Positions 1-56,266 of a stretch of DNA of 64,000 nucleotides are shown one piece after another. The notes under the pieces were generated by a model. That model ran no database searches. It was not told where the DNA came from and saw nothing but the letters and a program-made list of their open reading frames with translations. Each line of letters starts with the position of its first letter. Within the stretch, counting starts at the first letter, position 1. This DNA comes from Geosiphon pyriformis uo1. Taxonomy: Eukaryota; Fungi; Glomeromycota. The position numbers and the translations under genes are program-made. The stretch spans positions 66,347-130,346 of the forward strand of contig JAAOMT010000777.1 in NCBI GenBank assembly GCA_016748015.1. The letters are read 5' to 3'.

Positions 1-2289
1 GCAATCTCTGATCTGATCAGAGAATTGGAACTAAAATGGTTCAGCGATAATAATGAAGGTATTATGTCAGAATGTGTGCATAATACTGATGCCGGATTTG
101 ATCTGAGGTATCCAGGAAAAAATGCCATCAAATTGGAACCACATTTATGCATCTGCATTGATTTAAAAATAGCACTGAAAATTTCAGCAACAACAATGGT
201 TCAATTAGCATCTAGGAATAGTTTAGTGAAAAGAGAAATTAATATAAAAGAAGGAATAATTGACATGGGATATGTAGGAAATATTATCACTATGCTACAA
301 AATGACTCAGAAAAGGCCTATATAATAGAGCCCAATGAAAAAATAGTACAGACAATATTCCTGCCTCTGATTAGAGTAGCTCAGTTAGTATTAGTGGGAA
401 AGAAGGAGGAATTAGGAATAACAGCAAGAGGAATACAGGAATTCGGATTGACAAGTAGAGTAAATGTACCAGTCAATATGGCAGAAAAAAAAATTGTTGA
501 CCAAGAAAAAATTATCTCAATGGGTCAAGCAATTTTTATTCCATCATATGGCCAGTACATGATAGAGATAAAGCAGGAAATAAAAAAACAGAATCAGATT
601 TTTGAAGCAGAACTAACCTTTTGTGAATCAGAAGAGATTGGACTCATCAATCTTTATATACCAGTCAAAAATTACAGCCACATCAAAATTCCCATCTACA
701 ATAATACAGGAAATGTCATAGTAATACCAACTGGAACCACCATTGGATACTTAAGCACTGAAATAGAGGATCAACTACCAAGCACCATTTTGAACTTTCC
801 ACAGCTTTGTAGATATGTTGATATCACATCACAAATAATATATAAACAAAGCAAATGTTATTTGCTCCAACCAGAACAATTGGAACAAATAAACATGGGA
901 TACTTAAATCCACTCTAATATATGCAACTTAAGATGTTGCTTAACAATTTCAATGACATCTTTGCCAGTGAAAACAAGTTTGGCCAAACTGACATCATCT
1001 AACATCAGATCAAGACTGAAGATGCAATGCCAATTAAACAAAGAGCATACAGAGTACTACTAGCTAGCCACAAGATTATTTGTCAAGAGATAAACCAAAT
1101 GCTTGAAAATGGGCTAATTCAGCCATCAATGAGCCCATGGTCATCACCAGTAGTACTCGTCTGGAAAAAGAATGAGAAAATCCACTTTTGTGTGGATTAT
1201 AGAAAACTCAATGGAGTAACTTGTGAAAATAGCTATCCCACTCCACGGATCCAAGAATTATTCAATGTTTTCAGTGGAAACAAATGGTTTTCAACATTAG
1301 ACCTGGACAGTAGTTACTAGCAAGTAGCCATGAATCCAGCTGACAAAGAAAAGACAGCATTCACCACCAGAGAAAAAAATTTTGAATTTGAAGTAATGCC
1401 ATTTGGCTTAACCAATACACCAGTCACTTTCCAATGGCTAATGAAAATCATTTATATTGGCTTGTTGTGGAAATCAGTAGTTGTATACTTGGATGACACC
1501 AATGTATTTTCAAAAACATTTGATGATCATCTTCATCATCTTCAACAAGTGTTTGAAAGATTAAGAAGAGCAGAACTAAAGTTAAATGCAACAAAGTGCT
1601 TTTTTAGCAAAACAGAACTAAAATTCTTGGGACACATAGTCAGCAAAAATGGCATCAAAACGGATCCAAAGAAAATAGAGATAGTAAAGAACTTTCCAGT
1701 ACTGACCAATATGACAAAACTGAAATTATTCTTGGGATTTGCCAGCTACTATCAACATTTTATCAAGAACTTTTCCAAGATAGTGCAGCCACTCAACCAA
1801 CTGCAAACCAAGAATACAAAATATGAATGGACAGGAAGTCAACAAAAAGCTTTTGATATTCTAAAAAGAAAGCTTATTTAAGCTCCAGTACTGATCTATC
1901 CAGATTACAGCAAACCATTCATTATTACTACCAATGCATCTAGCCAAGCATTGGGAGTGGTACTATCTTAGAGAGGTCCAGACAGCAGAAAACATCCAGT
2001 AGCATATACCAACAGAGGTTTAACACCAGCCAAAAAGAACTATGGAACACCGGAACAAGAACACTTAGCAATATACTGGGCTGTCATGAAATGGAAAGAA
2101 TACTTGAGCCAGAAGTTTGAAGGGTACACAGATCACAAAGGATTAACATTACTTCAAAAACAAGAATTTGGAAATAAAAGACAGTCAAAATAGAAAATGA
2201 TACTCGCACTATATAATTATACTATACATTATAAAAAGAAAAAAGACAATGGAAATGCTGACGGTTTGTTATGAATAAGACAAATTTAA
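1..2289 (+). pseudogene. pol of element A (dUTPase, dUTPase-like beta region, RT, RNase H), many in-frame stops
   Basis: One frame throughout. DAGFDL / LASRNSL / GIIDMGYVG / RGIQEFG dUTPase motifs; SPWSSPVVLV, FCVDYRKLN, VMPFGLTN, VYLDD; RH TDH and NADGL; ends ...RQI-TAA at 2287-2289. Confidence 0.9.
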
Positions 2290-2350
2290 GAACATTTCAA
2301 CCCAAAAATATAACAAAACCAGAACAATACCAACGAAAATATAACAAAAG

Positions 2351-3733
2351 ATAAACATACAAAAATATCAACAACTGCAACATTATATAAACACTCAATA
2401 GTTCAAGAAAAATTTATCTCAAACAGAATGAAAGAGTATCAAACAACAATTAAAATATTTTATTACTCACCAAAATATACTTTATTGGAAAAATAGAAGA
2501 AATCTAAAGCAACCAATCAGAGTGATCACAGAGCCAGAAAAAGAGACAATATTATTCAACATGCACTCAAATCCAACAGCAGGACACTTTCACAAAGAAG
2601 CAACCATGAAAAAAACCAAAAAAAAATATTATTGGCCATCAATGTATCCAGACATTATTCAATATGTTCAAAATTGTGATGCTTGTCAGTAAAAAGGAGG
2701 TACGAAACCCAATGAACCATTAAGACCAATCAAAGTAGGACAACCATTTGACTGTATTGGAATTGATTTAGTTGGACCATTAACGATCACCAGCAAAGGA
2801 AACAGGTACATAGCAGTAGCTATGGACTATCTCACTAAATGGCCAGAGGCGAAAGCATTTCAAAGAGCGGATGCAGAATCTGTTGCCAAATTTATTCATC
2901 AAGATTTAATTTGTTAACACAGATGTCCAAAGAAATTATTATCAGACCAAGAAACTCATTTTGTGAACAGAACATTAACAGAATTGAGCCAAAGATTTGG
3001 AATTAAGAGACCATTATTATCATCATACTATCCACAAACCAATGAATTAGTCAAAAAATTTAACAGAACATTGTGTGAAGCAATAGCTAAGCTCAGCCAA
3101 GAAAACCAAAATGATTGGGATTTGTTGATATCATCAGTACTATTTGTTTATCAAACAATAAAGCAAGATACTACACAAGCAACACCATTTAAATTAGTAT
3201 ATGGTAGGACAGCAACATTATCAGTGGAAATAGAAGTCAGCACATACCCAACCAAACCAATAACAGAAGAAAATTTCAAAAACACATTGTTGAGAAGAAC
3301 ATATAACTTAATGGAAACATTAGAAAACAAATAACGAAGAGCAGTTGACAACATACAAAGGTCACAAGAAAAACAAAAAAAAAGACATGATAACCAATTA
3401 CCAGATAAACCAGTTGAATTCAAGATTAAAGACAAAGTATTACTATATCATATATAAATAGAAAAACAATGGAGTGGAAAATTGGATCCCAAATGAGATG
3501 GACCATTTCACATAGAAGAAATTCTAGAGAATGGAGCTTACAAATTAAGATTGAATAACAAAATCTTAACCAAAGCAGCACATGGAGATTGACTGAAACC
3601 ATACCACCATATAGCATCATCATTCACCAATAATATTCTACAATTAGAAGTACAGAGAATACTAGTCCAATCAGATAAGATTCTATAAGATCTGGAACCA
3701 ATCATTATTATTGACAACAACATGTCCAATTGA
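2351..3733 (+). pseudogene. stand-alone integrase ORF of element A (start presumed ATG eroded to ATA)
   Basis: MHSNPTAGHF...CDAC zinc finger, IGIDLVGP, LSDQETHF, YPQTNELV core, GPF, C-terminal DLEPIIII. It is in a different frame from RNase H. Confidence 0.85.
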
Positions 3734-3786
3734 TTAACAAAAAAATATATAAAAACATGGTTGACGCGACAGAAAAGATCAGAAAA

Positions 3787-4416
3787 ATGGAAATTATGGA
3801 CAATATCCATTCATTAGCCCAACAAATTTTTCAATTAATCCAACACCAGGAGATGGAAATTACAATCAATCAACAAACCATTTGTTACAAAAATACAGCA
3901 AAGATACCACAAAACAAAGCACAGAAAAGACTTGAAAATGTTGTTAACAAGATCATAACCAAGATAAAATTGGCCATAAAAGAACAACAAATAGTCAAAT
4001 TATACCAAGAACTTACCAGAGAAACTTTGACTTGGTGGATGCAACAATTTCCGAAAAACTATTGTTATTTCCACTTAGAACAACATGTAAATATTCAGAA
4101 TTTGTACGTTGACAAAACAAAATGGTTATTCGACACAACAATACTAAGACAACTAGAATAATTTGTGGGAAAGAACAATCTAATTACACAAGCTTGAGCT
4201 ATTTACTGGCTATATATGGGATTTTAAGACCAACCAGAAATCTTATTCAACACAGCAATAGATACAGTTATGAGTAATCAATTGGAAAAAATGACCAATG
4301 CCCAATTTAAAGAATTACAAACTAAAATAATACAAGTAATACTCGAAAAAGAAGTTCAAGAAATAATTCAAGAAGGGGAATTAAAGGAATAAGATTTTGA
4401 TAGAGCTCAATATTAA
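3787..4416 (+). pseudogene. ORF3 (3' accessory ORF of unknown function) of element A
   Basis: MEIMDNIHSLAQQIF... continues across stops to FDRAQY-TAA at the PPT. Colinear similarity to ORF3 of B and C. Confidence 0.75.
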
Positions 4417-4635: not shown

Positions 4636-4926
4636 AAATATGTATATATAGCAGTAGCATTAAAAGCAGAAAAAAGAGAATCAACACCAAAAATTCTTAG
4701 CTTAGTTACCACAATTCTCAAATAAATAATTATTTACTATATCAAATTCATTCTTTACTATCAACACTTCATGTTGATAGTAACTGATACTTAACCATAT
4801 TGGAACAATAGCTCTTGATCACAGTTATTGACAGAATACTAACTTGCAAATTATCTTGGCTTATTTCTTAGTTTCTCTTTTATCTTTCTTTGTTTTCTTT
4901 GTTGTCTACTAACTTGATTAAAGGAT

Positions 4927-5239
4927 TTACTCTTGGAAGACTTATGGAAGAATAAAACTTACTTAAAACAATACTTACTCTTGAAGGACTTACAGAGGAA
5001 TAAAACTTACTTAAAACAATACTTACTCTTAGAGGACTTACAGAGGAATAAAACTTACTTAAAATAATACTTACTCTTGGAAGACTTATGGAGGAATAAA
5101 ACTTACTTAAAACAATACTTATTTTTGGAGGACTTATGAAGGAATAAAACTTACTTAAAACAATACTTACTCTTGGAAGACTTACAAAGGAATAAACTTG
5201 CTTAAAACAATACTTACTCTTGGAGGACTTACAGAGGAA
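4927..5239 (+). repeat. 48-bp tandem repeat, ~6.5 copies, inside LTR A
   Basis: Unit TTACTCTTGGAGGACTTACAGAGGAATAAAACTTACTTAAAACAATAC starts at 4927, 4975, 5023, 5071, 5119, 5167 and 5214. Confidence 0.95.
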
Positions 5240-10397: not shown

Positions 10398-11379
10398 TGT
10401 TATCAGAGGTTTTTGGTCTCTTTTCTTGAATGTTGTTGATGCCTGTTTGCTGTGAATTCACGTTTCCAGGAAGTAGTTGGATCTTCAGTAACTGAATTTA
10501 TCTTCAAATTATTTCCTATAATTTGAACTTGCTGGGCTTATGAGTGGAATGGCCAATTCCATGCCAGTTGCTTTATATAGTTATGTTGTAGTAAATGTCA
10601 ACTCTTTCCCAGAAATTGCTTGTCTGAAAGCTCACTAAAAATGTGTAGTTACTTTGCTGTGAAAGTTAACTCTTCTACAGGAATCTTGTCTGTAGGCTAC
10701 CCTAATAATTGTAATAAGAAAAGAAAAGAAAAATAAAAGAAATGTAAAAGAAATAGGATTTTATCAAGGGAAACGTTTTTCTATCCAGGCCTGGAGTTAC
10801 TAACAGTTTACTGAAATTGGTAGCTAATCAATTTCAAAACATTAGTTGAGTTTTGGGGATTTTCCACGTGTACTAATTAAAGAATTTGATTTTTCGAATT
10901 ATTTGATATTTATTTCTTTTTTGTGTGTGTAGGAATGGTTTTAAGTGATAAATCTAAAGTAAGATATATTTTCTCAAAGAGAAAAGCTCTTCTTTTATAC
11001 AACTTGTCATAACACTATTCTATGAACTTGAACTTTGCTATTTTCTACAATTTTGCTGAACTAAAGATACATTTTGGCAAACTACAAGTTATTTCTGTGA
11101 ACTATTAGATATTTTGGTGAACTATCAATTATTTTGGCAAATTTCTACAAATTTTGGTGCACTTTTGAATATTACATAGTTCGGAGTATTGCATGATTGA
11201 TTGTCGCAATTAGGTTACATTTGTGTTGTATACAATTTGGGTTATTAATTAAATAATGATTTTGAACATTTTTGCTAATGTAATAAGTGATAATTTGAAA
11301 CAATAATATATGCTAATTAATGATAGGATTTATAAGATAATTTCATGCTAAATAATATCTCTAATTTCATCTGGTAACA
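10398..11379 (-). repeat. 3' LTR of B (982 bp)
   Basis: Direct repeat of 19283-20244; termini TGTTA...TAACA; PPT (rc GAGGAGGAGATTA) at 11380-11392. Confidence 0.95.
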
Positions 11380-11390
11380 TAATCTCCTCC

Positions 11391-12067
11391 TCAAAACTGA
11401 GCTCTGTCAAAGTCCAAGTACTGTCTGTAATTTTCAAATAGTAATCCAAAATTATTGAAAAAATTTGGTCTGAAAATTGTTGAAATTTCAGTTCTGTGAG
11501 CTTTCCAATGTATTGAATCTTCAAAGGTCGTAAAATTGGGTTTTGTAGAACATTTTCACAGATGTAGAATAGGTCATAAAGTCTAAGAGCAGCTTTGAGC
11601 TTGTAGCAACTGTTTGTTGGTCCAGCTGTTGTCTTGAATTTGTTGTGGAGTTGTTTCTGAATAGCTTTTTTTATGAGGTTTGCTGTTGTAAGTTCCAGTT
11701 TCTATTTGTATAGTGTTTTTCCAATGTGAAAATATCTATAGATTGGAGGATATTTAGTGTTTTCTTTATTGAGACACAGTTGAAGTCTTTGTTGAATTGT
11801 AGTATTTGGTGGAATACTAATTAGAATGAGCATTAGGTTTTCTCTTAAAGCAAGCTTTAAAAGTTCTGGCAGATGAATTCCAGAATAACTTCTTGTGTTC
11901 TTCTTATATGGGTGATATTTTTGTGAATTTGGGGCTAAATTTGTAACTACTTCTGTTTGGGTATAATTAATGTGGTTTCCAGTAACAGTAATAGATAATT
12001 TGGGTATTGTTTTTAAAGTTAACATTAGTTTTTGGAATAATTGTTGAATGTTTTGAGGAATAGTCAT
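11391..12067 (-). pseudogene. ORF3 of B
   Basis: MTIPQNIQQL...; one TGG>TAG stop and a 1-nt deletion near the end relative to C. Confidence 0.8.
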
Positions 12068-12183
12068 TATAAGAAATTTGAAATAAAAGAAAATTATTTT
12101 TGGTGTATGGGTTTTTATGTTATTTTTGTTTTGTTTTTGTGAAATTGTTTCTAAATTATAAGAGAATAACTAGTAAAATTAAA

Positions 12184-13569
12184 TTAAGTGTTCAGATTGG
12201 AAGGTTGTTCAATAACAACTATTGGTTCTAAGTTTCGGAGAATATCTTCAGGATTGACTAAAGGGGAATGTATACCAATTTGTGGAATTAATGGTTCAAG
12301 ATTGTTTCTGGAATGATAGTATTTCAAATGATTTCCATGTGCAACTTTTGCTAGAATTTTGTCATCATATCTTAGCTTGTATGATCTATTGCCTAGGACT
12401 TCATGAATAAAAAATAGTCCATCCTATTTATTTTCAAATTTTCCACTCCATTGTTTTTCAGCTTTAGTTCTGTATAAGAGAACTTTGTTTCTGATTTTAA
12501 ATTCATTGGTGACTGAAGACAATTTGTCATCATGCCGTTCTTTTTGTCGAGCTTGGGAGTGTTCAATATGGGTGGGTGCTATTCATTATTTTTCTTCCAA
12601 TGTGTTAAGCAGAGTGTAGACTCTTCACTAAAGTGTTTCTTGGAAATTGTTTTTATCAATTGGTTGTGCTGAGTATGTTTCCACTGTGAAACTAATTGGT
12701 AATGTTGCTGTCCTTTCATAAGTTAAATCAAATGGTGTGTGTTTTGTGGTATCTTGTTTTAGTGTTCTGTATGCTAGCAACACTGATGGAATAAAGATAT
12801 CCCACTCTTGCTTAAAATCGGTTGAGACTTTGGCTAATGACTTACACAATGTTCTATTAAAACGTTCCACAAGTCTGTTTGTTTGTAGATGGTAAGGCGA
12901 AGACAGAGGTCTTTTGACATTGAATCATTCGCAAATTTCTTGTATCAGGTTGTTCACAAAGTGTGTCCCCTGATTGGATAAAAGTTTAATTGGACATCCG
13001 TGTCTACAAATGATATCTTTGTAGATGAAATTTGCTATTGATTTTGCATCTGCTTGTTGAATGGCTCTGGCTTCGGGCCATTTAGTAAGATAGTCTACAG
13101 CTACTGCAATATAATAGTTTCCTTAAGTGGTGATAAATAGTGGTCCAACTAAATCGATACCAACTCGGTCAAAGAGTTGTCCAACTTTGATTGGATTTAA
13201 TGGTTCAGTAGGGCGTGTTCCTTCTTTTCTTTGACAACTATCACAAGATTCAACATATTTGTGAATGTTTTTTCTTATTTGAGGCCAAAAGTAGTATTCT
13301 AGTGTTCTTTGGGTGGTGCTATCTTTTCTGAAGTGTGCTGATGAAGGATCTGAGTGCATGTTGTATAATATGATCTCTTTTTCCTGTTTTTGTATTAATC
13401 TGAGTGGTTTGTTTGGGTTTTTGAAATTTCAATGATAAATAATGTTGTTGTGTAGAAAATATTGTTTGGCTTGTTGTTGTAGTCAATGTTTTTCATTTGG
13501 AGACCAATCTGTTGGGATTGTTAATGATTCCAAATATTGTTTGAGATTGTTGTAGTTTTCCAAATTCAT
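12184..13569 (-). pseudogene. stand-alone integrase ORF of B
   Basis: Own ATG (MNLENYNNLKQYL), HHCC (MHSDPSSAHF...CDSC), VGIDLVGP, MERFN, C-terminal NLEPIVVIEQPSNLNT*. Confidence 0.85.
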
Positions 13570-13620
13570 TGTTTGTTAGCTTTTTTGGTTGGTTAAGTTG
13601 AGTGTTGGTTTTTGTGTTTT

Positions 13621-16600
13621 CTAATCTTGTTTTATTCTGGAGAGACAGTCAACATTGGTGTGGAGTTTTCCTGGTTTGTGATGTACTATATATTGATAGT
13701 TTGCTAGAAATCCTGTTCATCAGGTTTGTTTTACATTCAGCTGAGTATTTTTGTTCTGAAGTCATTTGAGTCCAATATCATCAGTAATAATATCGAATTT
13801 TTTAGGCCTGAGATAAAGGTTGAAATGGTGTAGGGCCCAAATTATGGCTGCTGTTTCTAGTTCTGTGGCAGGGTAGTTTTTCTCAACTGGTTTTAATGTT
13901 TTGCTAGCATAAGCAATTACTCGCTCATTTCCGTTGTCATCTAGTTGTAATAAGATGGCACCAAAAACAGTATATGAAGCATCTGTAGCTAGTTGAAATC
14001 GGTTGCTGAAATCCGGGTAGGCGAGGATTGGAGCTGTTGTCAGTTTTTTCTTGAGAATTTCAAAAGCTTTTTGGTGTTTGGTAGTTTATTTGTATTCAAT
14101 GTTCTTGGTGGTGAGCTGGTTGAGGGATTTTGCAATTTCCGAGAATCCTTTGATAAACTTCCGATAGTAGGATTCTAATCCTATGAATTCTCTTAGTTCT
14201 GTAGTGTTTCGAGGAGTTTTGAAGTTTTTGACAATGCTGATTTTTCCAGGGTTTGGTTTAATTCCATTTTTACTAATGATATGACCAAGGAAGACCAGGC
14301 TTGTTTTTCTAAAGTAGCATTTTTTGATATTGAGTTTTAGTCTTGCTTTTCATAATTGTTGAAAAACTTCTCGCAGATGTTTTAAGTATAATTTGAATGA
14401 TGGAAAATAAACAATAGTATTATCAAGATAAACGACTACTGACTTCCAAAGAAGTCCTTGGTACACAACATCCATTAATCTCTGAAATGTTGCTGGTGCA
14501 TTGCATAATCCGAAAGGCATTACATTGAACTTATAATTTCCACCTTGAGTGGTGAATGCTGTTTTGGGGTGATCTTTGGGATCCATAACAACTTGCCAGT
14601 AACCGCTTTCTAAATCTAGTGTTGAAAAGTATTTGGATTTTCCAAGGGCATCTAATATGTTATCAATTCAGGGAAAGGGATAGGCATCTCCAATTGTAAC
14701 ACTGTTGAGTTGTCAATAGTCAACACAAAATTGTATCTTTTCATTTTTTTTTTAACTAGCACTACAGGTGAAGCCCAAGGACTCATGGAGAGTTGGATGA
14801 GCCCATTGTTAAACATTTGTTGTACTTCTTCTTGGATGAATTGGTGGCTTTCTGGAGCAACTCGATATGCTTGTTGTCTTCTTGGTTTGGCATCTCCTGT
14901 ATAAATTTGGTGTTGGACCAAATTGGTTTTTCCTAAGTCATTGTTGTTTTCAGTAAAGATATCGGCAAATTCTGCAATTAGCTCTTTGAGCTGGCTCCAT
15001 TGTTGTGGTTCAAGTTGTCTCATGTTGATTTGAGATAGTTTTTTTATGACAACATGGTAGTTTTTAGAGCTAGGGTTCAGGTTGATTTTTGGTAGTGAAT
15101 ATCCAATAATTTCAGAGAAATCAGAGACTATTTGGGGTAATTCTTGTTGAAATATATTACTGTGAATAACTCCAATTTCTAAATTATTTAATAAAATTAT
15201 GGGGTAATTATTGGGATTGTAAAAAGTAACTTGCACTTTCTTTGTTCCTTCTGAAATATAAATGTTTGGGATCAAAATATTATGTTCCAAGCAGACTTGT
15301 TTATTGGACTCAAAAATTTGTTGTGTGGTTGTTGGCTTTGGGCAGGTGTAGATTTCCGGATGTTCTCCAAAGAGTGAGATAGTAATTGGTTGTGGAAGTC
15401 TGAGAATCTGGTAGAATTTGTTCTGTGTGTTAAGAGTTATATTAACTGGAATTGTGAATCGTTCAGTTGAACCAAAACCTTGGGTTCCTCTATTGCTTTT
15501 TCTTAATTGTTCTCTTTGATTGACTAGTTGCAAACCTGAAATGTTGATTAGGGGTAGGTAAATAACTTGGGCAATTTTTTCAGCATGTTTGATCTTGAAT
15601 GGTTTGTCAGTTTCATTTTGAAGCATTACTGTTATGTCTCCAGTATATCCAGCGTTAATTATTCCTTCTTTGACATTAATTCCTTTGCTTGCCAGAGAGG
15701 ACCGGGAGGCGATTTGAACCATCGCTTTTGGCGGGATTTCGAATGCAATTTTGAGGTTGATTTTTGTAAGAGATTTGGGTTTGAGAACAAGAGTATCCTT
15801 GCCTGGATATTTTAGGTCATATCCAGCATCAATTTCGTGTGCTTTTTCAGGTTTTATTCCTTGTCTGTTGTTGTTAAGGTATTTAAGTTGTAAAACAGAC
15901 TGATTTTTGATAAGGTAGATGGGTGTTGTTTTAATTTCTTCCGTTTCTTCAGGTTCTCTGAATTCAATTTGATTCTCATCATTTTTGCTGGGCAAGAGAA
16001 TACTAAGAGCATAACATTCAGGACACCATTGTTTATCACAAGGCATAATGCATTCTTCACATAGCCTAATGTTCATTTGCTCTAATCGTTGAATTTGAGC
16101 TTCTTGGATTGGGTAGGTGTGACTTGCAATTTGGTGGTAGACTTCTACTTTGTTTTTATAATTGAAACCAGCTAATTCCATGGTGTATTCAATGTATTCT
16201 GCTTTTTTCATTTGACAAACATCTTTTTTGGTAGCTCTATTAATTAATGCCATTGCTAGGTTGAAAATCATCTTAGCATCATGGGGGTAGTGATAAAGTT
16301 TGTTGAGAGCACTGTTGTATGCCGCATTAAAGGGTGTTCCTCTTTTTACTTTTTCTGAAATTGATAAAGCATATTGGCAGGTCTGATCACAGACTCCTTC
16401 TCTTATGGCTACATCAATCTAATTGCATTCTTCTGGTAGCATATCTCCACAAGTTAAACAAGGGGTGTTGTCCCATTTTTCACTCCTTTTTATTAGATGG
16501 CCCTATCGTTCTCTGTGGCAAGCCTTGCAGTAATAACAAGTATGATTTTCATATTCTTCTTCAGGTGAAATGCAGGCTCCCATTGACGATAGTTTTTTGT

Positions 16601-19281
16601 GGCAGTCCTTACATTTAAGGAGAATATAGGGGCATTGTTTCCTTGGTTCGGGTTTGAGTAAGAAATATTCCATCCAGAGATTTCGGGTTCAGAGTATGAG
16701 GTAAAATGTTCTTGTTCTGTTTCATTGGCCCAGTTGGATGTTGATCCAAGAGCCATAAATGTTTCAATGAGAGGTTTTTCTTTTTCTGGTTCAAATTCAA
16801 AAGCTGGGGCTTTTTTAGAGCATTTGTTGAATGTACCACAAGTGGCAGGTACTCGGGCGTGTTGTTCTTGGTAGAAGATTGTTAATTCTTGTGTTTCCCA
16901 ATTCAAATTAGCATTGGCTTTTTGAAGCCAATCATTTCCGACAAGAGCTTGGTATTGGGCTGCGTCCATTATAAGAACTTTGACTGGAATGATGATTCCA
17001 TCAAGAGTGAACAGAAAATTGTCAATTTCTCCTACTGGGGTCTTTTTCATGCCATCAGCAGTGATGATTACTGTTTGAGCTGGTCGGTTGACATTTTTCT
17101 TTAACTGTTGCATTAACTGGTAGATAATAATGCTTCCGGCAGATCCACTGTCTAGGATTAAGCAAATTGCCTTTCTTTCAACTTCTGCTTCAGTGTACAT
17201 AGTAGTGATTGCTTTTTGTTCATTAGCGGATGTATTGCTAAGCAGGAATGGTGACTTATTTGCTTCGAACTTAAAAGGGAATATATCTGAAAGGTTAGCA
17301 TTTTCAGTAATTTTGGCTGGTGGGATTGTGGTGGGAGTATAGGAAAAGTTTTGTTGTTGTGCTGCAGCTCTACCTTCCAAATGTGCAGTATGGTAAAAAT
17401 TCTGTTCTTTTGGCATTGTTAAATAACTGGGTTGAGTGTGGTAGTGGTTGGGTCTTAGTTGAGTGAAATTTTGGGGAACCAATTGGTTGTTTGAACTGAT
17501 TCTATTGTTGTGTACTTGGTATTGGTTTTGTGATGTGAATTGATTTTGTGTAGTTAGTCTTTGAGCAGGTACTTGATAATGTTGTGTGGGTGGTTGTTGG
17601 TATTGCTGTTGGATTGGCTGTGGGGTGGGCTGATAATAGTTATTTTGGTATTGGGGTTTTGGTGGATAGTAAGCTGGTGGTAGTGGTTGATAATAAGATT
17701 GCTGTGGTAGAGGGTAACGTTAATTACTCTTATTTTGTTGGTCTCATTATAGCTTTCTGCAATCTCTTTTCCAGTGGTCTGAGATTCCACAGTAATGGCA
17801 ATTCTGAGGCTGGTTATTGGAAAGTAGTGCAAAGTTATTTTGATTTCGTCTTTGGGGTGGTTGATATCTTTGGGGTTGCTGTTGTTGTTAATTGGTAAAA
17901 TAGTTTTCAATTTTCTTTGTGAGTTGGTCAATTTTTTCCTCAACTGCTAAGCTGGTTTCTCCAATTGCCAAATTTACAAGTTTTGTGCAATTGGTCTCTT
18001 TCATGGCCATTTCATATCTTTTCGCATGCTGTATGGCAGAGTTCAAATTTTCTGGGGCATGTGAGCGAACCTTTTTAATTAGTTTATCTTTTAGACCAGC
18101 GATAAATTAATCCAAGATTTGAGCATCAGAATAATAATTGTTTGTTTCGAGTTGGTGAATTTGTCTGAAAAGTTTGTTGAATTTCCCAATATAAGTCATA
18201 ACAGATTCGGAGGGTTCTTGTTTGATATTTCGAAAATGGTTGCGAAGGGTGATGGAGGTATTATTGTTGGTAAACTGTTCAAGGAAGGCTGCTTTGAAAG
18301 CGTTTCAATTATTGAATAGGGTGGCCAAGTTTTCAAACCATTCTTCTGCTGTTTCTTTGAGAAAGTAGGGAATTGTTCTTAACATTCTGGCAGCATTCCA
18401 TCCATTTGTATCTCCAGCTTTAGTAACTTAGTCGAGCCATTCTTGGGAACTGGTCTCAATGTCTTCTCCATTAAATTCAGAGATTTTTGTGATGTAGGTT
18501 GTCATTTTGTCTTCTTCATTTTCACTAACTATTGATTTTTCTTCAGATATTATGGATTTGTTTTTTTCGTTTGCTGCTGTCTCAGAATGTTCACTTTGAT
18601 TTTCAGCTAGAAAGTCAAGGAGATTGCAACTAGTTTGAAGGGGTTCTTGTTGTCTGGTGGAACTTCTGAGTGATGTAAAATCTTCTGGTTTTGCAAATCA
18701 ATTTAAGTGTGAATTAGGTGTTTGTGCTTGTGCAAGTGAAGCTGGAAAAGATGTGATAGTAAGTGGAAATTTTGAACTGGTTCCTTGTTCAGGTGTTTGT
18801 AAATGTTTGGCAGTTGTTTTTGGTAGTGTTGGAGTATTTGGGGTAGTATTTGAGTATTGCTTCAATTTGTTTTTGCCTTTGTTGCTTGTTTCTGTTTTCG
18901 ATTCAAAATCAATAGAGTATTGAGACTGCACTGGATATGTTTCTTTACAGTATTTGATAATGTTAAAATTAAGTTTGTGAAAGTAAGTGGCAAGTGTTTC
19001 ACTGTTAAGGTCTTCTGTTCCCAATTGTGAATAGTGCACTAAATTATTGTAGAGGTTGCTTCTAACTTCTGAAATGTTGTAGTTTCCAAAAAGATAATTG
19101 TTGATGCAGTTTTCAATGTATTGGTATACTGATTTTTTGATGACTTCAATTCCGTCTGGAATGTTGAATCTTTGCTTGCAGTGGGTGTAAATTGATTGGT
19201 AATACTCTAGAGTTGTTGCGTCTGGTGTGGTCACTACTTTGAATTTGTTGTTGCTGTCTTATTTCCATGGGAGAGCACCAA
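13621..19281 (-). pseudogene. gag-PR-Cys-rich-dUTPase-RT-RNaseH of B
   Basis: Gag, CCHC knuckle, LILDSGSAGS protease, DAGYDL/ASRSSL/RGTQGFGST dUTPase, RT, RH ending NVDCLSRIKQD-TAG. Confidence 0.9.
19262..19280 (-). other. primer binding site of B
   Basis: TGGTGCTCTCCCATGGAAA begins 2 nt after the LTR CA. Confidence 0.85.
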
Positions 19282-19282
19282 A

Positions 19283-20244
19283 TGTTACTGGAGGTTTTTG
19301 GTCTTTTTTTTTGAATGTTGTCAATGTCTGTTTGCTGTGAATTCACGTTTCCAGGAAGTAGTTGGACCTCCAGTAACTGAATTTATCTTCAAATTATCTC
19401 CTATAATTTGAACTTGCTGGGCTTATGAGTGGAATAGCCAATTCCATACCAGTTGCTTTATGTAGTTATGTTGTAGTAAACATCAACTCTTTCCTAGGAA
19501 TTGCTCGTCTAGAAGCTCACTAAAAATGTGTAGTTACTTTGCTGTGAAAGTTAACTCTTCTACAGGAATCTCATCTGTAGGCTACCCTAATGATTGTAAT
19601 AAGAAAAGAAAAGAAAAATAAAAGAAATGTAAAAGAAATAGGATTTTATCAAGGGAAATGTTTTTCTATCCAGGTCTGGAGCCACTAACAGTTTACTGAA
19701 ATTGGTAGCTAATCAATTTCAAAATGTTAGTTGGGTTTTGGGGATTTTTCACGTGTAATAATTAAAGAATTTGGTTTTTCGAATTATTTGATATTTATTT
19801 CTTTTTTGTGTGTATAGGAATGGTTTTAAGTGATAAATCTAAAGTAAGATGCATTTTCTCAAAAAGAGAAGCTCTTCTTTTATACAACTTGTCGTAACAC
19901 TATTCTATGAACTTGAATTTTGCTATTTTTTACAATTTTGCTGAACTAAAGATATATTTCGGCAAACTACAAGTTATTTCTGTAAACTATCAATTATTTC
20001 GGCAAATTTCTACAAATTTCGGCAAACTTTTAAATGTTACATAGTTTGGGGTATTGCATGATTGATCATTGCAATTAGGTTACATTTGTGTTGTGTACAA
20101 TTTGGGTTATTAATTAAATAATGATTTCAGACATTTTTGCTAATGTAATAAGTGATAATTTGAAATGATAATATATGCTAATTAATGATAGGATTTATAA
20201 GATAATTTCATGCTAAATAATATCTCTAATTTCGTCTGGTAACA
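19283..20244 (-). repeat. 5' LTR of B (962 bp)
   Basis: Direct repeat of 10398-11379 lacking one 20-bp internal repeat unit. Confidence 0.95.
19876..19884 (-). promoter_or_regulatory. TATA box in the 5' LTR of B
   Basis: TATAAAAGA on the minus strand, conserved in all four B/C LTRs, downstream of ~20-bp U3 repeats. Confidence 0.6.
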
Positions 20245-20248
20245 TCAT

Positions 20249-47375: not shown

Positions 47376-48356
47376 TGTTACTGGAGGTTTTTGGTCTCTT
47401 TTCTTGAATTTTGTTGATGCCTGTTTGCTGTGAATTCACATTTCCAGGAAGTAGTTGGACCTTCAGTAACTGAATTTATCTTCAAATTATCTCCTATAAT
47501 TTGAACTTACTGGACTTATGAGTAGAATGGCCAATTCCGTGCCAGTTGTTTTATGTAGTTACGTTGTAGTAAACATCAACTCTTTCCCAAGAATTGCTTG
47601 TCTGGAAGCTCACTAAAATGTGTAGTTACTTTGCTGTGAAAGTCAACTCTTCTACAGAAATCTCGTCTGTAGGCTACCCTAATGATTGTAATAAAAAAAG
47701 AAAAGAAAAATAAAAGAAATGTAAAAGAAATAGAATTTTGTCAAGAGAAACGTTTTTCTATCCAGGCCTGGAGTCACTAACAGTTTACTGAAATTGGTAG
47801 CTAATCAATTTCAAAACGTTTAGTTGGTTTTTGGGGATTTTCCACGTGTACTAATTAAAGAATTTGGTTTTTCAAATTATTTGATATTTATTTCTTTTTG
47901 TGTGCATAGGAATGGTTTTAAGTGATAAATCTAAAGTAAGATATATTTTTTCGAAGAGAGAAGCTCTTCTTTTATACAACTTGTCGTAACACTATTCTAT
48001 GAACTTGAACTTTGCTATTTTCTACAATTTTGCTGAACTAAAGATAAATTTTGGTGAACTACAAGTTATTTCTGCAAACTATTAGATATTTTGGTGAACT
48101 ATCAATTATTTCGGCAAATTTCTACAAATTTTGGCGAACTTTTGAATGTTACATAGTTCGGAGTATTGCATGATTGATCATCGCAATTAGGTTACATTTG
48201 TGTTGTGTACAATTTGGGTTATTAATTAAATGATGATTTTGGACATTTTTACTAATGTAATAAGTGATAATTTGAAACGATAATATATGCTAATTAATGA
48301 TAGGATTTATAAGATAATTTTATGCTAAATAATATTTTTAATTTCATCTGGTAACA
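47376..48356 (-). repeat. 3' LTR of C
   Basis: Repeat of the B LTRs, TGTTAC...GTAACA. Confidence 0.95.
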
Positions 48357-48367
48357 TAACCTCCTTC

Positions 48368-49045
48368 TCAAGACTGAGCTCCGTCAAAAGTCCAAGTACT
48401 GTCTGTAATTTCCAGATAGTAATCCAAAATTATTGAAGAAATTTGGTCTAAAAATTGTTGAAATTTCAGTTCTGTGAGCTTTTTAATGTATTGAATCTTC
48501 AAAGGTCATAAAATTGGGTTTTGTAAGACATTTTCACAGGTGTGGAATAGGTTATAAAGTTTAAGAGCAGCTCTGAGCTTGTAGTGACTGTTTGTTGGTC
48601 CAGCTGTTATTTTGAATTCGTTGTGGAGTTGTTTCTGAATAGCTTTTTTTGTGAGATTTGCTGTTGTAAGTTTCAGTTTCCATTTGTAGAGTGTTTTTCC
48701 AATGTGAAAATATCTATAGATTGGAGGATATTCAGTGTTTTTCTTATTGAGACACAGTTGAAGTCTTTGTTGAATTGTAGCATTTGGTGAAATACTAATC
48801 AGAGTGAGCATTAGGTTTTTTCTTAAAGCAAGCTTTAAAAGTTCTGGCAGGTGAATTCCAGAATAACTTCTTGTGTTCTTTTTATATGGGTGATATTTTC
48901 GTGAATTTGGGGCTAAATTTGTAACTACTTCTGTTTGGGTATAATTAATGTGGTTTCCAGTAACAGTAATAGATAATTCAGGTATTGTTTTTAAAGCTAA
49001 CATTAGTTTTTGAGATAATTGTTGAATGTTTTGAGAAATAGTCAT
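48368..49045 (-). pseudogene. ORF3 of C (226 codons, one internal CGA>TGA stop)
   Basis: MTISQNIQQL...TWTFDGAQS-TGA, ending at the PPT. Confidence 0.8.
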
Positions 49046-49161
49046 TATAAGAAATTTGAAATAAAAGAAAATTATTTTTGGTGTATGGGTTTTTATGTTA
49101 TTTTTGTTTTGTTTTTGTGAGATTGTTTCTAAATTATAAGGGAATAACTAGTAAAATTAAA

Positions 49162-50543
49162 TTAGTTCAGGTTGGAAGGTTGTTTAATGACAACTATTGG
49201 TTCTAAGTTTCGGGGAATATCTTCGGGATTGACTAAAAGGGAATATATACCAATTTGTGGAATTAATGGTTCAGAATTGTTTCTGAAATGATAGTGTTTC
49301 AAACAATCTCCATGTGCAACTTTTGCTAGGATTTTGTCATCAAGTTTTAGCTTGTATGATCCGTTGCCTAGAACTTCATGGATAAAGAATGGTCCATCCC
49401 ATTTATTTTCAAATTTTCCACTCCATTGTTTTTCAGCTTTAGTTCTGTGTAAAAGAACTTTGTTTCTGATTTTAAATTCATTGGTGACTGGAGGCGATTT
49501 GTCATCATGCTGTTCTTTTTGTCGAGCTTGGAAGTGTTTAATATGGTGGCTGCTATTCGTCGTTTTCTTTCCAATATGCTAAGCAGAGTGTAGGCTCTTC
49601 GCTGAAGCATTTCTTGGAAATTGTTTTCATTGATTGGTTGTGCTGGGTATGTTTCCACTGTAAAACTAATTGGTAATGTTGCTGTCCTTTCGTAAGTTAA
49701 ATCAAATGGTGTGTGTTTTGTGGTATCTTGTTTTAGTATTCTGTATGCTAGCAACACTAATGGAATAAAGATATCCCACTCTTGCTCAAAATCGGTTGAG
49801 ACTTTGGCTAATGACTTACACAATGTTCTGTTAAAATGTTCTACAAGTCTGTTTGTTTGTGGATAGTAAGGCAAAGACAGAGGTCTTTTGACATTGAATT
49901 GTTCACAAATTTTTTGTATCAGGTTGTTCACAAAGTGTGTCCCCTGATTGGATAAAAGTTCAATTGGACATCCGTGTCTACAAATGATATCTTCATAGAT
50001 GAAATTTGCTACTGATTTTGCATCTGCTTGTTGAATGGCTCTGGCTTCAGGCCATTTAGTAAGATAGTCTACAGCTACTGCAATATAATGGTTTCCTTGA
50101 ATGGTGATAGATAGTGGTCCAACTAAATCGATACCAACTCGGTTAAAGAGTTGTCCAACTTTGATTGGATTTAATGGTTCAGTAGGGCATGTTCCTTCTT
50201 TTCTTTGACAACTATCACAAGATTCGACATATTTGTGAATGTTTTTTCTTATTCGAGACCAAAAGTAGTATTCTAGTGTTCTTTGGATGGTGCTATCTTT
50301 TCTGAAGTGTGCTGATGAAGAATCTGAGTGCATGTTGTATAATATGATCTCTTTTTCCTGTTCTTGTATTAATCTGAGTGGTTTGTTTGGGTTTTTGAAA
50401 TTTCAATGATAAATAATGTTGTTGTGTAGAAAATATTGTTTGGCTTGTTGTTGTAGTCAATGTTTTTTATTTGGAGACCAATCTGTTGGGATTGTTAATG
50501 ATTCCAAATATTGTTTGAGATTGTTGTAGTTTTCCAAATTCAT
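49162..50543 (-). pseudogene. stand-alone integrase ORF of C
   Basis: Own ATG, HHCC, DDE core in ORF 49368-50333, WDGPF, NLEPIVVI. Confidence 0.85.
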
Positions 50544-50601
50544 TGTTTGTTGGCTCTTTTGGTTGGTTAAGTTGAGTGTTGGTTTTTGTGGGTTTTTTTT
50601 T

Positions 50602-53600
50602 CTAATCTTGTCTCATTCTGGAAAGACAGTCAACATTGGTGTGGAGTTTTCCTGGTTTGTGATGTACTATGTATTGATAGTTTGCTAGAAATCCTGTCCA
50701 TCGGGTTTGTTTTGCATTCAGCTGAGTATTTTTGTTCTGAAGCCATTTGAGTCCAATATTATCAGTAATAATATCGAATTTTTTAGGCCTGAGATAAAGG
50801 TTGAAGTGGTGTAGGGCCCAAATTACGGCTGTTGTTTCTAGTTCTGTGGCAGGGTAGCTTTTCTCAGCTGGTTTTAATGTTCTGCTAGCATAAGCAATTA
50901 CTTGCTCATTTCCGTTGTCATCTAGTTGTGATAAAATGGCATCAAAAGCAGTATATGAAGCATCTGTAGTTAGTTGAAATCAGTTGCTGAAATCCGGGTA
51001 GACAAGGATTGAAGCTGTTATCAGTTTTTTCTTGAGAATTTCAAAAGCTTTTTGGTGTTCGGTAGTCTATTTGTATTCAACATTTTTGGTGGTAAGCTGG
51101 TTGAGGGGTTTTGCAATTTCCGAGAATCTTTTGATAAACTTCCAATAGTAGGATGCTAATCCTATAAATCCTTTTAGTTCTGTAGTGTTTCGAGGAGTTT
51201 TGAAGTTTTTGACAATACTGATTTTTTCAGAGTTCGGTTTAATTCCATTTTTACTAACAATATGACCAAGGAAGACCAGGCTTGTTTTTCCAAAGTAGCA
51301 TTTTTTGATATTGAGTTTTAGTCTTGCTTTTTGTAATTGTTGAAAAACTTCTCGCAGATGTTTTAAGTGTAATTTGAACGATGGAAAATAAACATCAGTA
51401 TTGTCAAGATAAATGACTACTGACTTCCAAAGAAGTCCTTGGTACACAACATCCATTAATCTCTGAAATGTTGTTGGTGCATTGCATAATCTGAAAGGCA
51501 TTACATTGAACTTATAATTTCTACCTTGGGTGGTGAATGCTGTTTTGGGGTGATCTTTGGGATCTATAGCAACTTGCCAGTAACAGTTTTCTAAATCTAG
51601 TGTTGAAAAGTATTTGGATTTTCCAAGGGCATCTAACATGTCATCAATTCGGGGAAAGGGGTAGGCATCTCCAATTGTAACACTGTTGAGTTGTCAATAG
51701 TCAACACAAAATCATATCTTTCCATTTTTCTTTTTAACTAGTACTACAAGTGAAGCCCAAAAACTCATGGAGGGTTGAATGAGCCTATTGTTAAACATTC
51801 ATTGTACTTCTTCTTGGATGAATTGGTGGCTTTCTGGAGCAATTCAATATGCTTGTTGTCTTTTTGGTTTGGCATCTCCTGTATAAATTTGGTGTTAGAC
51901 CAAATCGGTTCTTCCTAAGTCATTGTTGTTTTTAGCAAAAATATTGGCAAATTCTGCAATTGGCTCTTTGAGCTGGCTCCGTTGTTGTGATTCAAGTTGT
52001 CCCATGTTGATTTGAGATAGTTTTTCTATGACAACATGGTAGTTTTCAGAGCTAGAATTTGGGTTGATTTTTAGTAGTGAATGTCCAATAATTTCAGAGA
52101 AATTGGAGACTGTTTGGGGTAATTCTTGTTGAAATATATTACTGTGAATAACTTCAATTTCTAAATTATTTAATAAAATTATGGAATAATTATTGGGGTT
52201 GTAAAAAGTAACTTGGACTTTTTTTGTTCTTTCTGGAATATAAATGTTTGGGATCAAAATATTATGTTCCAAGCAGACTTGTTTATTGGACTCAAAAATT
52301 TGTTGTGTGGTTGTTGGCTTTGGGCAGGTGTAGATTTCCAGATGTTCTCCAAAGGGTAAGATGGTAATTGGTTGTAGAAGTCTAAGAATCTGGTGGAATT
52401 TGTTCTGTGTGTTAAGAGCTATATTAACTGAAACTGTAAATTGTCCAGTTGAACCAAAACCTTGGGTTTCTCTATCGCTTTTTCCTAATTGTTTTCTTTG
52501 ATTGACTAGTTGCAAACCCGAAATGTTAATTAGGGATAGATAAATAGCTTGGGCAATTTTTTCAGCATGTTCGATCTTAAATGATTTGTCAGTTTCATTT
52601 TGAAGCATCACTGTTATGTCTCCAGTATATCCAGCGTTGATTATTCCTCCTCTGACATTAATTTCTTTGCTTGCCAGAGAGGACCGGGAGATGATTTGAA
52701 CCATCGCTCCTAGTGGGATTTCGAGTGCAATTTTGAGGTTGATTTTTGTGAGAAATTTAGGTTTGAGAACAAGAGTATCCTTGTTTGGATATCTTAGGTC
52801 ATATCCAGCATCAATTTCGTGTGTTTTTTCGGGTTTTATTCTTTGTTTATTGTTGTTGAAGTATTTAAGTTGTAAGGCAGGCTGATTTTCAATAAGGTAA
52901 ATAGGTGTTGTTTCAATTTTTTCCATTGCTTCAGGTTTTCCAAATTCAATTTTGTTTTCATCATTTTCGCTGAGCAAGGGAATACTAAAAGCGTAGCATT
53001 CAGAACACCACTGTTCATCACAAGACATAATGCATTTTTCACATAGCCTAATGTTTATTTGCTCTAATCATTGAATTTGAGCTTTTTGTGTTGGGTAGGT
53101 GTGACTTGCAATTTGGTGGTAGACTTCTACTTCGTCTTCATAATCAAATCCAGCTAATTCCATGGTGTATTCAATGTATTCTGCTTTCTTTATTTGATGA
53201 ACATCTTCTTTGGTAGCTCTATTAATTAATGCCATTGCTAGGTTGAAAATCATCTCAGCATTATGGGAATAATGATAAAGTTTGTTGAGAGCACTGTTGT
53301 ATGCCGCATTAAAGGGTGTTCCTCTTTTTACTTTTTCTGAAATTGATAAAGCATATTGGTAGATCTGATCACAGACTTTTCTTCTCATGGCTATATCAAT
53401 CCAATTGCATTCTTCTGGTAGCATATCTCCACAAGTCAAACAAGGAGTGTTGTCCCATTTTCCACTTCTTTTTATTAGATGGCCCCATCATTCTCTGTAG
53501 CAAGCCTTGTAGTAATAACAAGTATGATTTTCATATTCTTCTTCAGGTGAAATGCAGGCTCCCATTGACAATAGTTTCTTGTGGCAGTCTTTACATTTAA

Positions 53601-56265
53601 AGAGAATATAGGAGCGTTGTTTTTTTGGTTTGGGTTTTGAGTAAGGGATATTCCATCCAGAGGTTTTAGGTTCAGAATGTGGAGTAAAATATTCTTGTTC
53701 TGTTTCATCGGCCCAGTTAGATGTTAATCCAAGAGCCATAAATGTTTCAATGAAGGGTTTTTCCTTTTTTGGTTCAAATTCAAAAGCTGGGGCTTTTTCA
53801 GAGTGTTTGTTGAATGTACCACAAGTGGCAGGTACTCAGGTGTGTTGTTCTTGGTAGAAGATTGTTAATTCTTGTGTTTTCCAATTCAGATTAGCATTGG
53901 CTTTTTGAAGCCAATCATTTCTGACGAGAGCTTAATACTGGGCTGCATTCATTACAAGAACTTTGACTGGAATGGTGATTCCATCAAGAGTGAACGGAAA
54001 ATTGTCAATTTCTCCTACTGGGGTCTTTTTCATGCTATCAGCAGTAATAATTACTGTTTGAGCTGGTCGGTCAACATTTTTCTTTAACTGTTGCATTAAC
54101 TGGTAGATAATAATGCTTCCGGCGGATCCACTGTCTAGGATTAAGCAAATTGCCTTTCCTTCAACTTCTGCTTTAGTGTACATAGTAGTGATTGCTTTTT
54201 GTTCATTGGCGGATGCATTGCTAAGCAGGAATGGTGACTCATTTGCTTCGAACTTAAAAGGGAATATATCTGAAAGGTTAGCGTTTTCAGCGATTTTGGC
54301 TGGTGGAATTGTGGTGGGAGTATAGGAAGAGTTTTGTTGTTGTGCTGCAGCTCTACCTTCCAAATGTGCAGTATAGTGAAAATTCTGTTCTTCTGGCATT
54401 GTTAAATAACTGGGTTGAGTGTGGTAATGGTTGGGTCTTGGTTGAGTGGAATTTTGGAGAACCAATTAATTGTTTGAACTGATTCTATTGTTGTGTATTT
54501 GGTATTGGTTTTGTGGTGTAAATTGATTTTGTGTAATCAGTCTTCGAGCAGGTACTTGATAATGTTGTGTGGGTGGTTGTTGGTATTGCTGTTGAATTGG
54601 CTGTGGAGCAGGCTGATAATAGTTATTTTGGTATTAAGGTCTTGGTGGATAGTAAGCTGATGGTGGTAGTTGATAATAAGATTGCTGTGATGGAGGGTAA
54701 CGTTGATTACTCCTATTTTGTTGGTCTCATTGTAGCTTTCTGCAATCTCTTTTCCAGTGGCCAGAAATTCCACAGTAATGGCAATTCTGAAGCTGGTTAT
54801 TGGAAAGTGATGCAAAGTTATTTTGATTTTGTCTTTGGAGTGGTTGATATCTTTGGGGTTGCTGTTGTTGTTGATTGGTAAAATAGTTTTCAATTTTCTT
54901 TGTGAGTTGGTCAATTTTTTCCTCAGCTGCTAAGCTGGTTTCTCCAATTGCCAAATTTACAAGTTTTGTGTGATTGGCCTCTTCCATGGCCATTTCGTAT
55001 CTTTTCGCATGTTGTATGGCAGAGTTCAAATTTTCTGGGGCATGTGGGCAAATCTTTTTAATTAGTTTATCTTTTAGGCCAGTGATAAATTGATTCAAGA
55101 TTTGAGCATCAGAATAATAATCATTTGTTTCGAGTTGGCAAATTTGTCTGAGAAGTTTGTTGAATTTCTCAATATAAGTCATAACAGATTTGGGGGGTTC
55201 TTGTTTGATATTTTGAAAATGATTGCGAAGGGTGATAGAGGTATTATTGTCAGTGAACTGTTCAAGGAAGGCTGCTTTGAAAGTGTTCCAATCATTGAAT
55301 GAGATGGCCAAGTTTTCAAACCATTCTCTTGCTATTCTTTTAAGAAAGTAAGAAATTGTTCTTAACATTCTGGCAGCATTCCATTCATTTGTATCTCCAG
55401 CTTTAGTAACTTGGTTGAGCTATTCTTGGAAACTGGTCTCAATGTCTTCTCCATTAAATTCAGGAATTTTTGTGATGTAGGTTGTCATTTCGTCTTCTTC
55501 GTTTTTGCTAACTATTGATTCTTCTTCAGATATTTTGGAGTCATTTTCTTCATTTGCTGCTGTCTCAGAGTGTTCACTTTGATTTTCAGCTAGAAAGTCA
55601 AGGAGATTGGAACTAGTTTGAAGGGGTTCTTGTTGTCTAGTGGGACTTCTGAGTGATGTAAAATCTTCTGGTCTTGCAAATTGATTCAAGGGTGAATTAG
55701 ATATTTGTGCTTGTGCAAGTGAAGCTGGAAAAGGTGTAATAGTAAGTGGAAATTTTGAACTGGTTCCTTGTTCAGGTGTTTGTAAATGTATGACAGTTGT
55801 TTTTGGTAGTGTTGGAGTATTTGGGGTGGTTCTTGAGTATTGCTTCAATTTGTTTTTGTCTTTGTTGCTTGTTTCTGTTTTCGATTCAAAATCAATAGAG
55901 TATTGAGACTGCACTAGATATGTTTCTTCACAGTATTTAATAATGTTAAAATTAAGTTCATGAAAGTAAGTGGCAAGTGTTTTACTGTTAAGGTCTTCAG
56001 TTCCCAACTGTGAATAGTGTACTAAATTATTATAAATGTTGCTTCTAACTTCTGTGATATTGTAATTTCCAAAAAGATAATTGTTGATGCAGTTTTCAAT
56101 GTATTGGTATACTGATTTCTTGACAACTTCAATTTTGTCTGAAATGTTGAATCTTTGCTTGCAGTGGGTGTAAATTGATTGGTAATACTCTAGAGTTGTT
56201 GCATCTGGTGTGGTCACCACTTTTGAAGTTGTTTTTGCTGTGTTGTTTCCGTGGAAGAGCACCAA
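50602..56265 (-). pseudogene. gag-PR-Cys-rich-dUTPase-RT-RNaseH of C (single frame)
   Basis: ORF fragments starting at 56265, 55368, 54465, 53739, 53439, 53028 and 51639 are all in one frame; CHYCGISGHWKRDC; ends SRMRQD-TAG. Confidence 0.9.
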
Positions 56266-56266
56266 A

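Follow-up and report, generated by a model that had tools for sequence, protein, structure and literature searches.

Integrase encoded apart from Gag-Pol in a lineage of Ty3/gypsy-type LTR retrotransposons

The position of integrase (IN) within the Pol polyprotein is a usual textbook feature of the Ty3/gypsy retrotransposons, which carry long terminal repeats (LTRs), and integrase normally enters the particle as part of Gag-Pol. Three elements of this type, here called A, B and C, lie in a 64,000-nucleotide stretch of the Geosiphon pyriformis genome (the window; contig JAAOMT010000777.1, positions 66,347 to 130,346, forward strand), and in these elements and their relatives integrase is encoded in an open reading frame (ORF) of its own. 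The likeness to Ty3/gypsy elements (Metaviridae) extends to LTRs with TG...CA ends, a target duplication (in B), a Ty3-type capsid and, from Pfam matches in the window ORFs and in intact loci, the domain order Gag, protease (PR), reverse transcriptase (RT), RNase H and IN. The best PDB match of the IN profile is Ty3 Gag-Pol (E 4.5e-50), and the families PF17921 and PF00665, for the zinc-binding and DDE-core parts of IN, are both present. The difference is that IN is outside the Pol polyprotein, as a separate cistron that is usually followed by a further frame, ORF3. As the Ty3/gypsy superfamily is defined by domain order and sequence kinship, not by ORF count, the lineage is filed as a Ty3/gypsy variant.

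Free-standing Gypsy-type integrases are known from the integrase-only Ginger/GIN DNA transposons and from domesticated GIN1 genes, and clusters named GIN1 are among the Atlas look-alikes of the IN studied here. Those elements and genes are not known to have gag, RT or LTRs, whereas the IN described here is inside complete LTR elements. Foamy viruses also make an enzyme apart from Gag, with Pol packaged via RNA signals; according to the available text (PMC3705302) the split there is between Gag and Pol, and packaging is confined to the PR-RT-IN precursor and does not extend to IN by itself, whereas here the cut is between RNase H and IN. In Ty3 itself IN is cut from the Gag3-Pol3 precursor, and the available passages on Ty3 and Ty1 state that IN supplied without RT did not rescue either element (PMC5371799). 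A survey of fungal LTR elements describes, in its available text, elements that for the most part have a single ORF or two and carry IN inside Pol, and includes PosPlaTy3-5 of Postia placenta, which has a dUTPase between PR and RT as the elements here do (PMC2864245). No chromodomain, as found in chromoviruses, was seen on the intact IN of the relative L014 or on the window IN, and PF00385 is absent from the 120 homologues listed.

The first-pass annotation had not recognised the layout as one already described, and no LTR element with a separate IN ORF was found in the literature searched, in so far as its text was available, a body that mostly excludes subscription journals and excludes Repbase and GyDB. 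The available passages of 10.1101/2021.03.30.436303, PMC13468544, 10.64898/2026.05.21.726589, PMC3248453 and PMC5911963 contain no such element, nor does the available text of PMC2864245, the supplementary structure table of which could bear on the point.

Integrase is split from Pol across the lineage

Elements A, B and C are all decayed copies. CpG in the window is 0.27 of expected and 62 of the 65 differences between the two LTRs of B are transitions, from which it is apparent that the copies are dead. The stop, spacer and start coordinates that had been assigned to the three elements were all confirmed on the sequence (Table 1), as were the G-poor, A/C-rich spacers of 61, 51 and 58 nt (A, B and C respectively; A makes up 59-61% of the bases and G 2-7%, compared with about 40% A and 14-17% G in coding regions), and the ATA at 2351 that had been proposed as the IN start position in A aligns with the conserved methionine of IN. 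In each element the stop lies four codons past the L-S-R position of the RNase H motif, and the predicted folding of each spacer is 0 kcal/mol. The spacers of A and C are out of frame; that of B is in frame, and its sole internal stop is a TAA where C has CAA. In the one sequencing run that contains the B/C family the 51-nt spacer is the commonest form (a 7-nt deletion relative to C, 13,273 of 20,607 depth), a 6-nt deletion relative to C is found at a depth of 1,903, and among the 40 of 554 variants listed from reads mapped on element C there is none at the stop codon.

It had also been argued that decay could not place a stop at the same position in diverged families. This argument is weaker than was stated, as B is in frame and B and C have five further decay-type stops in common in 2,195 compared codons; with 93% identity as well, the two amount to roughly one observation. 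With decayed copies and an in-frame spacer in B the window alone is not decisive for the split, and it is the intact relatives that decide the matter.

The search from which the 120 listed IN homologues come was limited by protein length (253-805 aa), hence the junction DNA of relatives was examined. The 80 metagenomic loci used are the best of 536 confirmed, picked by IN similarity alone, from a scan that covered 16 of the 64 parts of the collection. Six of these start inside IN, four are cut at the IN start and one (L048) has no in-frame Met, leaving 69, of which 23 have no RNase H end upstream (the contig is too short or carries other ORFs). In the 46 that show both the RNase H end and the IN start there is not one continuous RNase H-IN frame, which supports the separately initiated integrase proposed from the window. 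De-replication at 75% identity reduces the 46 to 37, and 32 of these have a short Pol tail; their stop-to-start gaps run from -14 to +365 nt and fall in all three frames (13/11/8), with TAA (16), TGA (9) and TAG (7) all used as stops. Long open gag-pol frames, of 1,479-1,651 codons, occur in several relatives (L012, L014, L065), each with a separate IN after it, and L072 carries both LTRs, which are 97% identical.

The proteins agree with the DNA. Most of the listed homologues are 400-440 aa, 93 of the 120 begin at the conserved first Met of IN and another 17 start 17 residues later, at a second Met. The catalytic D, D and E together with the zinc ligands are invariant in the 67 aligned INs. 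A protein search without restriction of length, which superseded an initial search for longer proteins that was too weak (8 fused found), showed that single-domain scores above 420 bits are reached by 16 proteins, all of them free of an upstream RNase H, the fused Pol proteins first appearing at 418 bits. Lineage-wide, then, the polyprotein ends at a genuine stop, and IN starts at a conserved AUG of its own and keeps its catalytic core intact. Selection against re-fusion of RNase H and IN is only suggested, as none of the 11 in-frame junctions is open where 2.0 would be expected (P 0.07).

Readthrough of the stop, or decay of what was once a sense codon, would give an ordinary Pol-IN polyprotein in the window's own subfamily. 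The 51-nt, in-frame spacer of B and of the commonest B/C variant would allow this, as would that of the nearest intact relative, L005, which has a single TAA and a 24-nt in-frame spacer, and the other decay stops common to B and C and five continuous Gag-Pol-IN proteins in or adjoining the clade point the same way. It is nonetheless very improbable, given that the spacers of A and C are out of frame, that the Pol frame of L005 is otherwise open with its TAA at the same place, that the base after the stop is a C at 1 junction of 35, that 8 of 11 in-frame spacers carry further stops, and that the IN Met and its start context are conserved.

An intron or a programmed frameshift could also rejoin RNase H and IN into one polyprotein, and the Rhizophagus clarus gene model P0122 is indeed fused. 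However, P0122 omits the RNase H end, including the motif that carries the final conserved Asp, as well as residues 1-21 of IN. It is nested within split proteins of R. clarus, and a predicted intron is the simplest account of it. A frame-restoring GT-AG pair occurs in 7 of 35 junctions (the count for A being affected by a decay stop) and consensus-like sites in none of the 35, 3 of the junctions contain slippery heptamers, and the required shift spans all frames; such a restored frame is scarcely to be expected. The first-pass annotation had named a continuous frame, an intron and a programmed frameshift as findings that would count against it, and each was checked in the relatives and none found lineage-wide. 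As lineage-wide routes, readthrough, frameshift and a frame-restoring intron are thus ruled out by the junction counts in relatives.

Routes by which integrase may be expressed

Judged from the junctions, there is about an even chance that IN is translated by termination-reinitiation on the same RNA after the gag-pol stop. Translation of gag-pol would terminate at the stop after RNase H, a few percent of small ribosomal subunits would remain on the RNA, and these would scan the AUG-free, unstructured spacer to the IN AUG or, at stop/start overlaps, would step back a few bases to it. The outcome would be a low amount of integrase per Gag from what is otherwise a 1:1 Gag-Pol frame, with the integrase delivered either by cis capture on whichever RNA or particle produced it, or by loading on the cDNA once the particle opens. 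Different families may use different routes.

A purine is found at position -3 of the IN AUG in 44 of 52 cases, compared with 56% of other ATGs (P about 1e-5). The spacers are also poor in ATGs, with 7 in 22 spacers where shuffles predict 20 and with 0 of 2,000 shuffles as low; the ATG-poor zone begins at the Pol stop, with 3 ATGs in 1,334 nt of spacer (at most 100 nt from the IN AUG), compared with about 30 per kb immediately 5' of the stop, in Pol. Spacers of the short-tail junctions contain little G and have no better predicted folding than shuffled sequences, and the junctions between IN and ORF3 span the same range of types as those between Pol and IN. The strong AUG context, the depletion of AUGs and the repeated junction types fit ribosomes restarting after a stop. 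That ribosomes of fungi are able to terminate at the end of a long ORF and then start again, at 2.5-4.4%, is reported for hypovirus CHV1 in the available text of PMC2699510.

The arrangement of a long ORF followed by an AUG-initiated ORF is common to CHV1 (UAAUG), caliciviruses, influenza B and the non-LTR retrotransposon SART1, and some relatives have similar TAATG (L019, L032) or ATGA (L024) junctions. In these known cases reinitiation was shown experimentally, with stop and start a few to about 30 nt apart in the sources as available, whereas here the spacers are at least 24 nt in 20 of 32 short-tail junctions and in all three window elements, and no motif of the TURBS type (a termination upstream site that binds ribosomes) is evident.

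Several observations weigh against reinitiation. Among the 21 out-of-frame junctions that are open as far as the ATG, 10 are stop/start overlaps (12 if the two TAATG cases are counted) where 8.1 are expected, and the frequency of overlaps was rejected as proof of coupling since there is no excess over chance at such short distances. Three spacers are long and AUG-rich, and scanning would not be expected to cross them (L029, 365 nt with 7 AUGs; L063, 461 nt with 7; L072, 727 nt with 12). Viral TURBS reinitiation needs the stop and start within about 20-30 nt (PMC10275272, a review, available text); the window spacers of 51-61 nt are beyond this distance and 16 of 32 short-tail relatives are within 30 nt. 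The 18S-complementary TURBS pentamer of caliciviruses was found in just 2 of 49 upstream windows of 90 nt. In the subclade of the window elements, the commonest B/C spacer and the L005 spacer are in frame with a single stop.

The long spacers are better accommodated if IN is made from a short capped mRNA of its own, either from an internal promoter near the end of pol, as in hepadnaviruses, or by splicing between the LTR leader and an acceptor site within the spacer, as with retroviral env or foamy pol. A short 5' leader would likewise show a strong start context and an AUG-poor spacer, the spacers of L029, L063 and L072 would fit better, that of L072 has a TATA-like run, and foamy virus Pol comes from a spliced mRNA (PMC3705302, available text). 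However, splice acceptors are not in excess (branch point plus YAG in 11 of 49 compared with 11.1 when shuffled; YAG in 29 of 49 compared with 31.9), the last 59 RNase H codons have, by eye, no synonymous-site conservation marking a signal, and TATA-like words are in just 5 of 23 spacers. In overlap families the capped leader would need to be shorter than about 30 nt; at the 12 overlap junctions the density of ATGs 30-150 nt upstream is normal, at 31-35 per kb, which is not what a long-leader capped mRNA would lead one to expect. A separate mRNA, the main rival to reinitiation, is on balance rather unlikely. The 727-nt spacer of L072 (6703-7432) also contains, besides its 12 ATGs and TATA-like run, a 10-mer repeated three times and a piece that resembles the 3' half of an RNA motif found in other relatives.

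This motif, of about 40 nt, has been aligned from 16 sequences, with 97% of cells paired and two-sided changes in 6 of 10 pairs, a covariation that exceeds all 500 shuffles and all slid controls, the structure being derived from the same 16 sequences. A covariance model places it in 20 of the 80 loci, always 0-41 nt before the IN AUG (e.g. L012, 4465-4500), and did not find it in the window. There was no match in Rfam at the motif in the 10 loci scanned, and a single exact pattern match in the viral collection, on an unrelated phage-like contig, is taken as chance. A structured, covarying element so close to the IN AUG could bring ribosomes directly to it without upstream translation. Such internal entry is improbable, since the motif is restricted to one subclade and was not found in the window, the other spacers are unstructured, including those of A, B and C, the motif structure comes from the very sequences used for counting, and the motif could equally aid reinitiation or act as a packaging signal. 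In SART1 a downstream RNA structure aids reinitiation (PMC10275272, available text).

The Pol of the motif subclade also has an acidic, Cys/His-rich tail of 200-300 aa after RNase H (216-314 aa in L012, L014, L027, L046 and L047), with a conserved Cys/His cluster. Pieces of the tail scanned against Pfam gave no match, and from its sequence it is possibly a new zinc-binding domain. Within the Pol-tail coding region of L042 (50-159) is a long, near-perfect hairpin, with weak matches to microRNA families that are below threshold.

ORF3, additional cistrons and other features of the window

The first-pass annotation had proposed a gag-pol, IN and ORF3 layout. This stands in intact relatives, although ORF3 is common rather than universal and some families carry extra cistrons. 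An ORF of at least 100 aa follows IN in 27 loci as well as in all three window elements, and is absent nearby in several loci with ample downstream sequence (e.g. L023, L028, L031, L046). An ORF3 profile built from 24 members matches 27 of the 30, including those of B and C, both of which were outside the model, and the ORF3 of A matches that of L005 by BLAST (E 7.6e-9). The product is an all-helical, soluble-looking protein of 140-240 aa, with a mean predicted local distance difference test score (pLDDT) of 95.7 in the predicted model of one member. No Pfam match was found for any of 49 members, the Atlas gave no usable match, no viral structure matched at E 0.001, and the best PDB match has Z 4.4, with none at Z of at least 5, weak or absent matches that do not demonstrate a new fold. 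ORF3 is a conserved helical family without a database match, and that it acts in reinitiation or in the delivery of integrase is conjecture. An errantivirus-like envelope glycoprotein was ruled out as the identity of ORF3, as a small, all-helical, soluble-looking protein without a Pfam match among the 49.

Extra cistrons are found in L044 (3-1234) and L056 (2-784), where kinase-like and restriction-endonuclease-like (PF13156) ORFs lie directly 5' of IN and are chained to it by ATGA or TGA-GTA-ATG; no RT was seen in either locus, the contigs being short. Downstream of IN, L032 (7404-9176) has a coiled-coil-like ORF and then what by eye is an ORF3-like ORF, and L055 (2942-5364) has two ORFs without matches.

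Table 1. Features of elements A, B and C, in window coordinates
Feature	Position	Strand	Remarks
A, gag-pol 3' part (dUTPase, RT, RNase H)	1..2289	+	ends TAA 2287-2289; decayed
A, spacer	2290..2350	+	61 nt; A/C-rich, AUG-free, unstructured
A, integrase ORF	2351..3733	+	begins with ATA, aligned to the conserved Met; scattered decay stops
A, ORF3	3757..4392	+	ends shortly 5' of polypurine tract and 3' LTR (LTR start 4430)
B, full-length LTR element	10398..20244	-	LTRs 10398-11379 and 19283-20244
B, gag-pol stop TAG	13621..13623	-	
B, spacer	13570..13620	-	51 nt; in frame, one internal TAA
B, integrase ORF	12184..13569	-	from ATG 13569; single frame, decay stops
B, ORF3	11348..12067	-	crosses polypurine tract and enters 3' LTR
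C, full-length LTR element	47376..57181	-	93% identical to B
C, gag-pol	50602..56217	-	single frame of ~1,870 codons; stop TAG 50602-50604
C, spacer	50544..50601	-	58 nt; out of frame; 7 nt longer than commonest family form
C, integrase ORF	49162..50543	-	start ATG 50543; zinc-binding domain plus rve domain; single late frameshift
C, ORF3	48366..49045	-	end approximate

Elements B and C are each about 9.8 kb. The LTRs of B are 93% identical, with TG...CA ends and a 4-bp target duplication at both flanks; C has LTRs, and a target duplication was looked for at its flanks and none seen. The gag-pol frame of C encodes capsid, zinc knuckle and protease, then a Cys-rich insert, and after it dUTPase, RT and RNase H. 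The insert, of about 280 aa, in the interval between protease and dUTPase (52850-53700 in C, and the matching part of B), has itself no Pfam match.

The window also holds two decayed copies of an element like a long interspersed nuclear element (LINE), with endonuclease, RT and RNase H matches, at 7899-10397 with 20247-24535 and at 33198-39913; element B sits inserted in the first. Just 3' of the 3' LTR region of A is a tandem array of about seven copies of a 48-nt unit (4879-5244), and a separate, inverted RT fragment related to A is at 5505-5967. A repeat of 1.3-1.4 kb, in inverted and direct copies with a weak match to an RNA-recognition motif, occupies 25563-33167.

Descent, hosts and significance

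An IN tree was built from rows selected among the loci and matches for spread and length, 53 of them split and 42 fused. All 53 split rows fall inside one branch of 58 rows (SH-like approximate likelihood-ratio test, SH-aLRT, 98), together with five continuous Gag-Pol-IN proteins; these, in or beside the split clade (P0274, P0275, P0293, P0333, P0318), may be a sister lineage or re-fusions. In P0274 the position of the IN start is occupied by a Met. A tree constrained to unite the 53 split rows, the best of the IN trees, has a likelihood 23.9 above that of a free quick search (approximately unbiased test, p-AU 0.70), and the split forms may have a single origin, which is not proved. The backbone of an RT tree, which included no named reference sequences, is poorly resolved. 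In the IN tree A, B and L005 form a 99% group, which C joins in another tree.

The named hosts are Rhizophagus and Paraglomus for relatives of IN, and Diversispora and Dentiscutata for relatives of ORF3, all of them arbuscular mycorrhizal fungi, and it is likely that the split-integrase lineage belongs to these fungi. Rhizophagus irregularis contains intact relatives (P0006, P0056). Gene predictors can create false introns over the junction, as with P0122, which may explain why the layout is easily overlooked in mycorrhizal genomes.

The split of IN from Pol is real and extends across a large lineage; the mechanism of its expression we infer. More tentatively, and rather doubtfully when all its parts are taken together, this could be an ancient fungal LTR clade with an operon-like RNA (gag-pol, optional cargo, IN, ORF3), in which ribosomes would restart after an ORF of 1,600-1,900 codons, a new RNA structure would help in one subclade, ORF3 would possibly be a reinitiation or packaging factor, and IN would reach the cDNA outside Gag-Pol. 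The lineage offers dozens of natural junction variants for the study of reinitiation after very long fungal ORFs, and also yields an uncharacterised RNA structure and a protein family without a database match. If true, IN would reach the cDNA without Gag-Pol, a route that, in the available accounts of the Ty1/Ty3 and foamy virus experiments, should fail, and a successful lineage without the Gag-Pol-IN link would be a second solution to the dosage and delivery of integrase.

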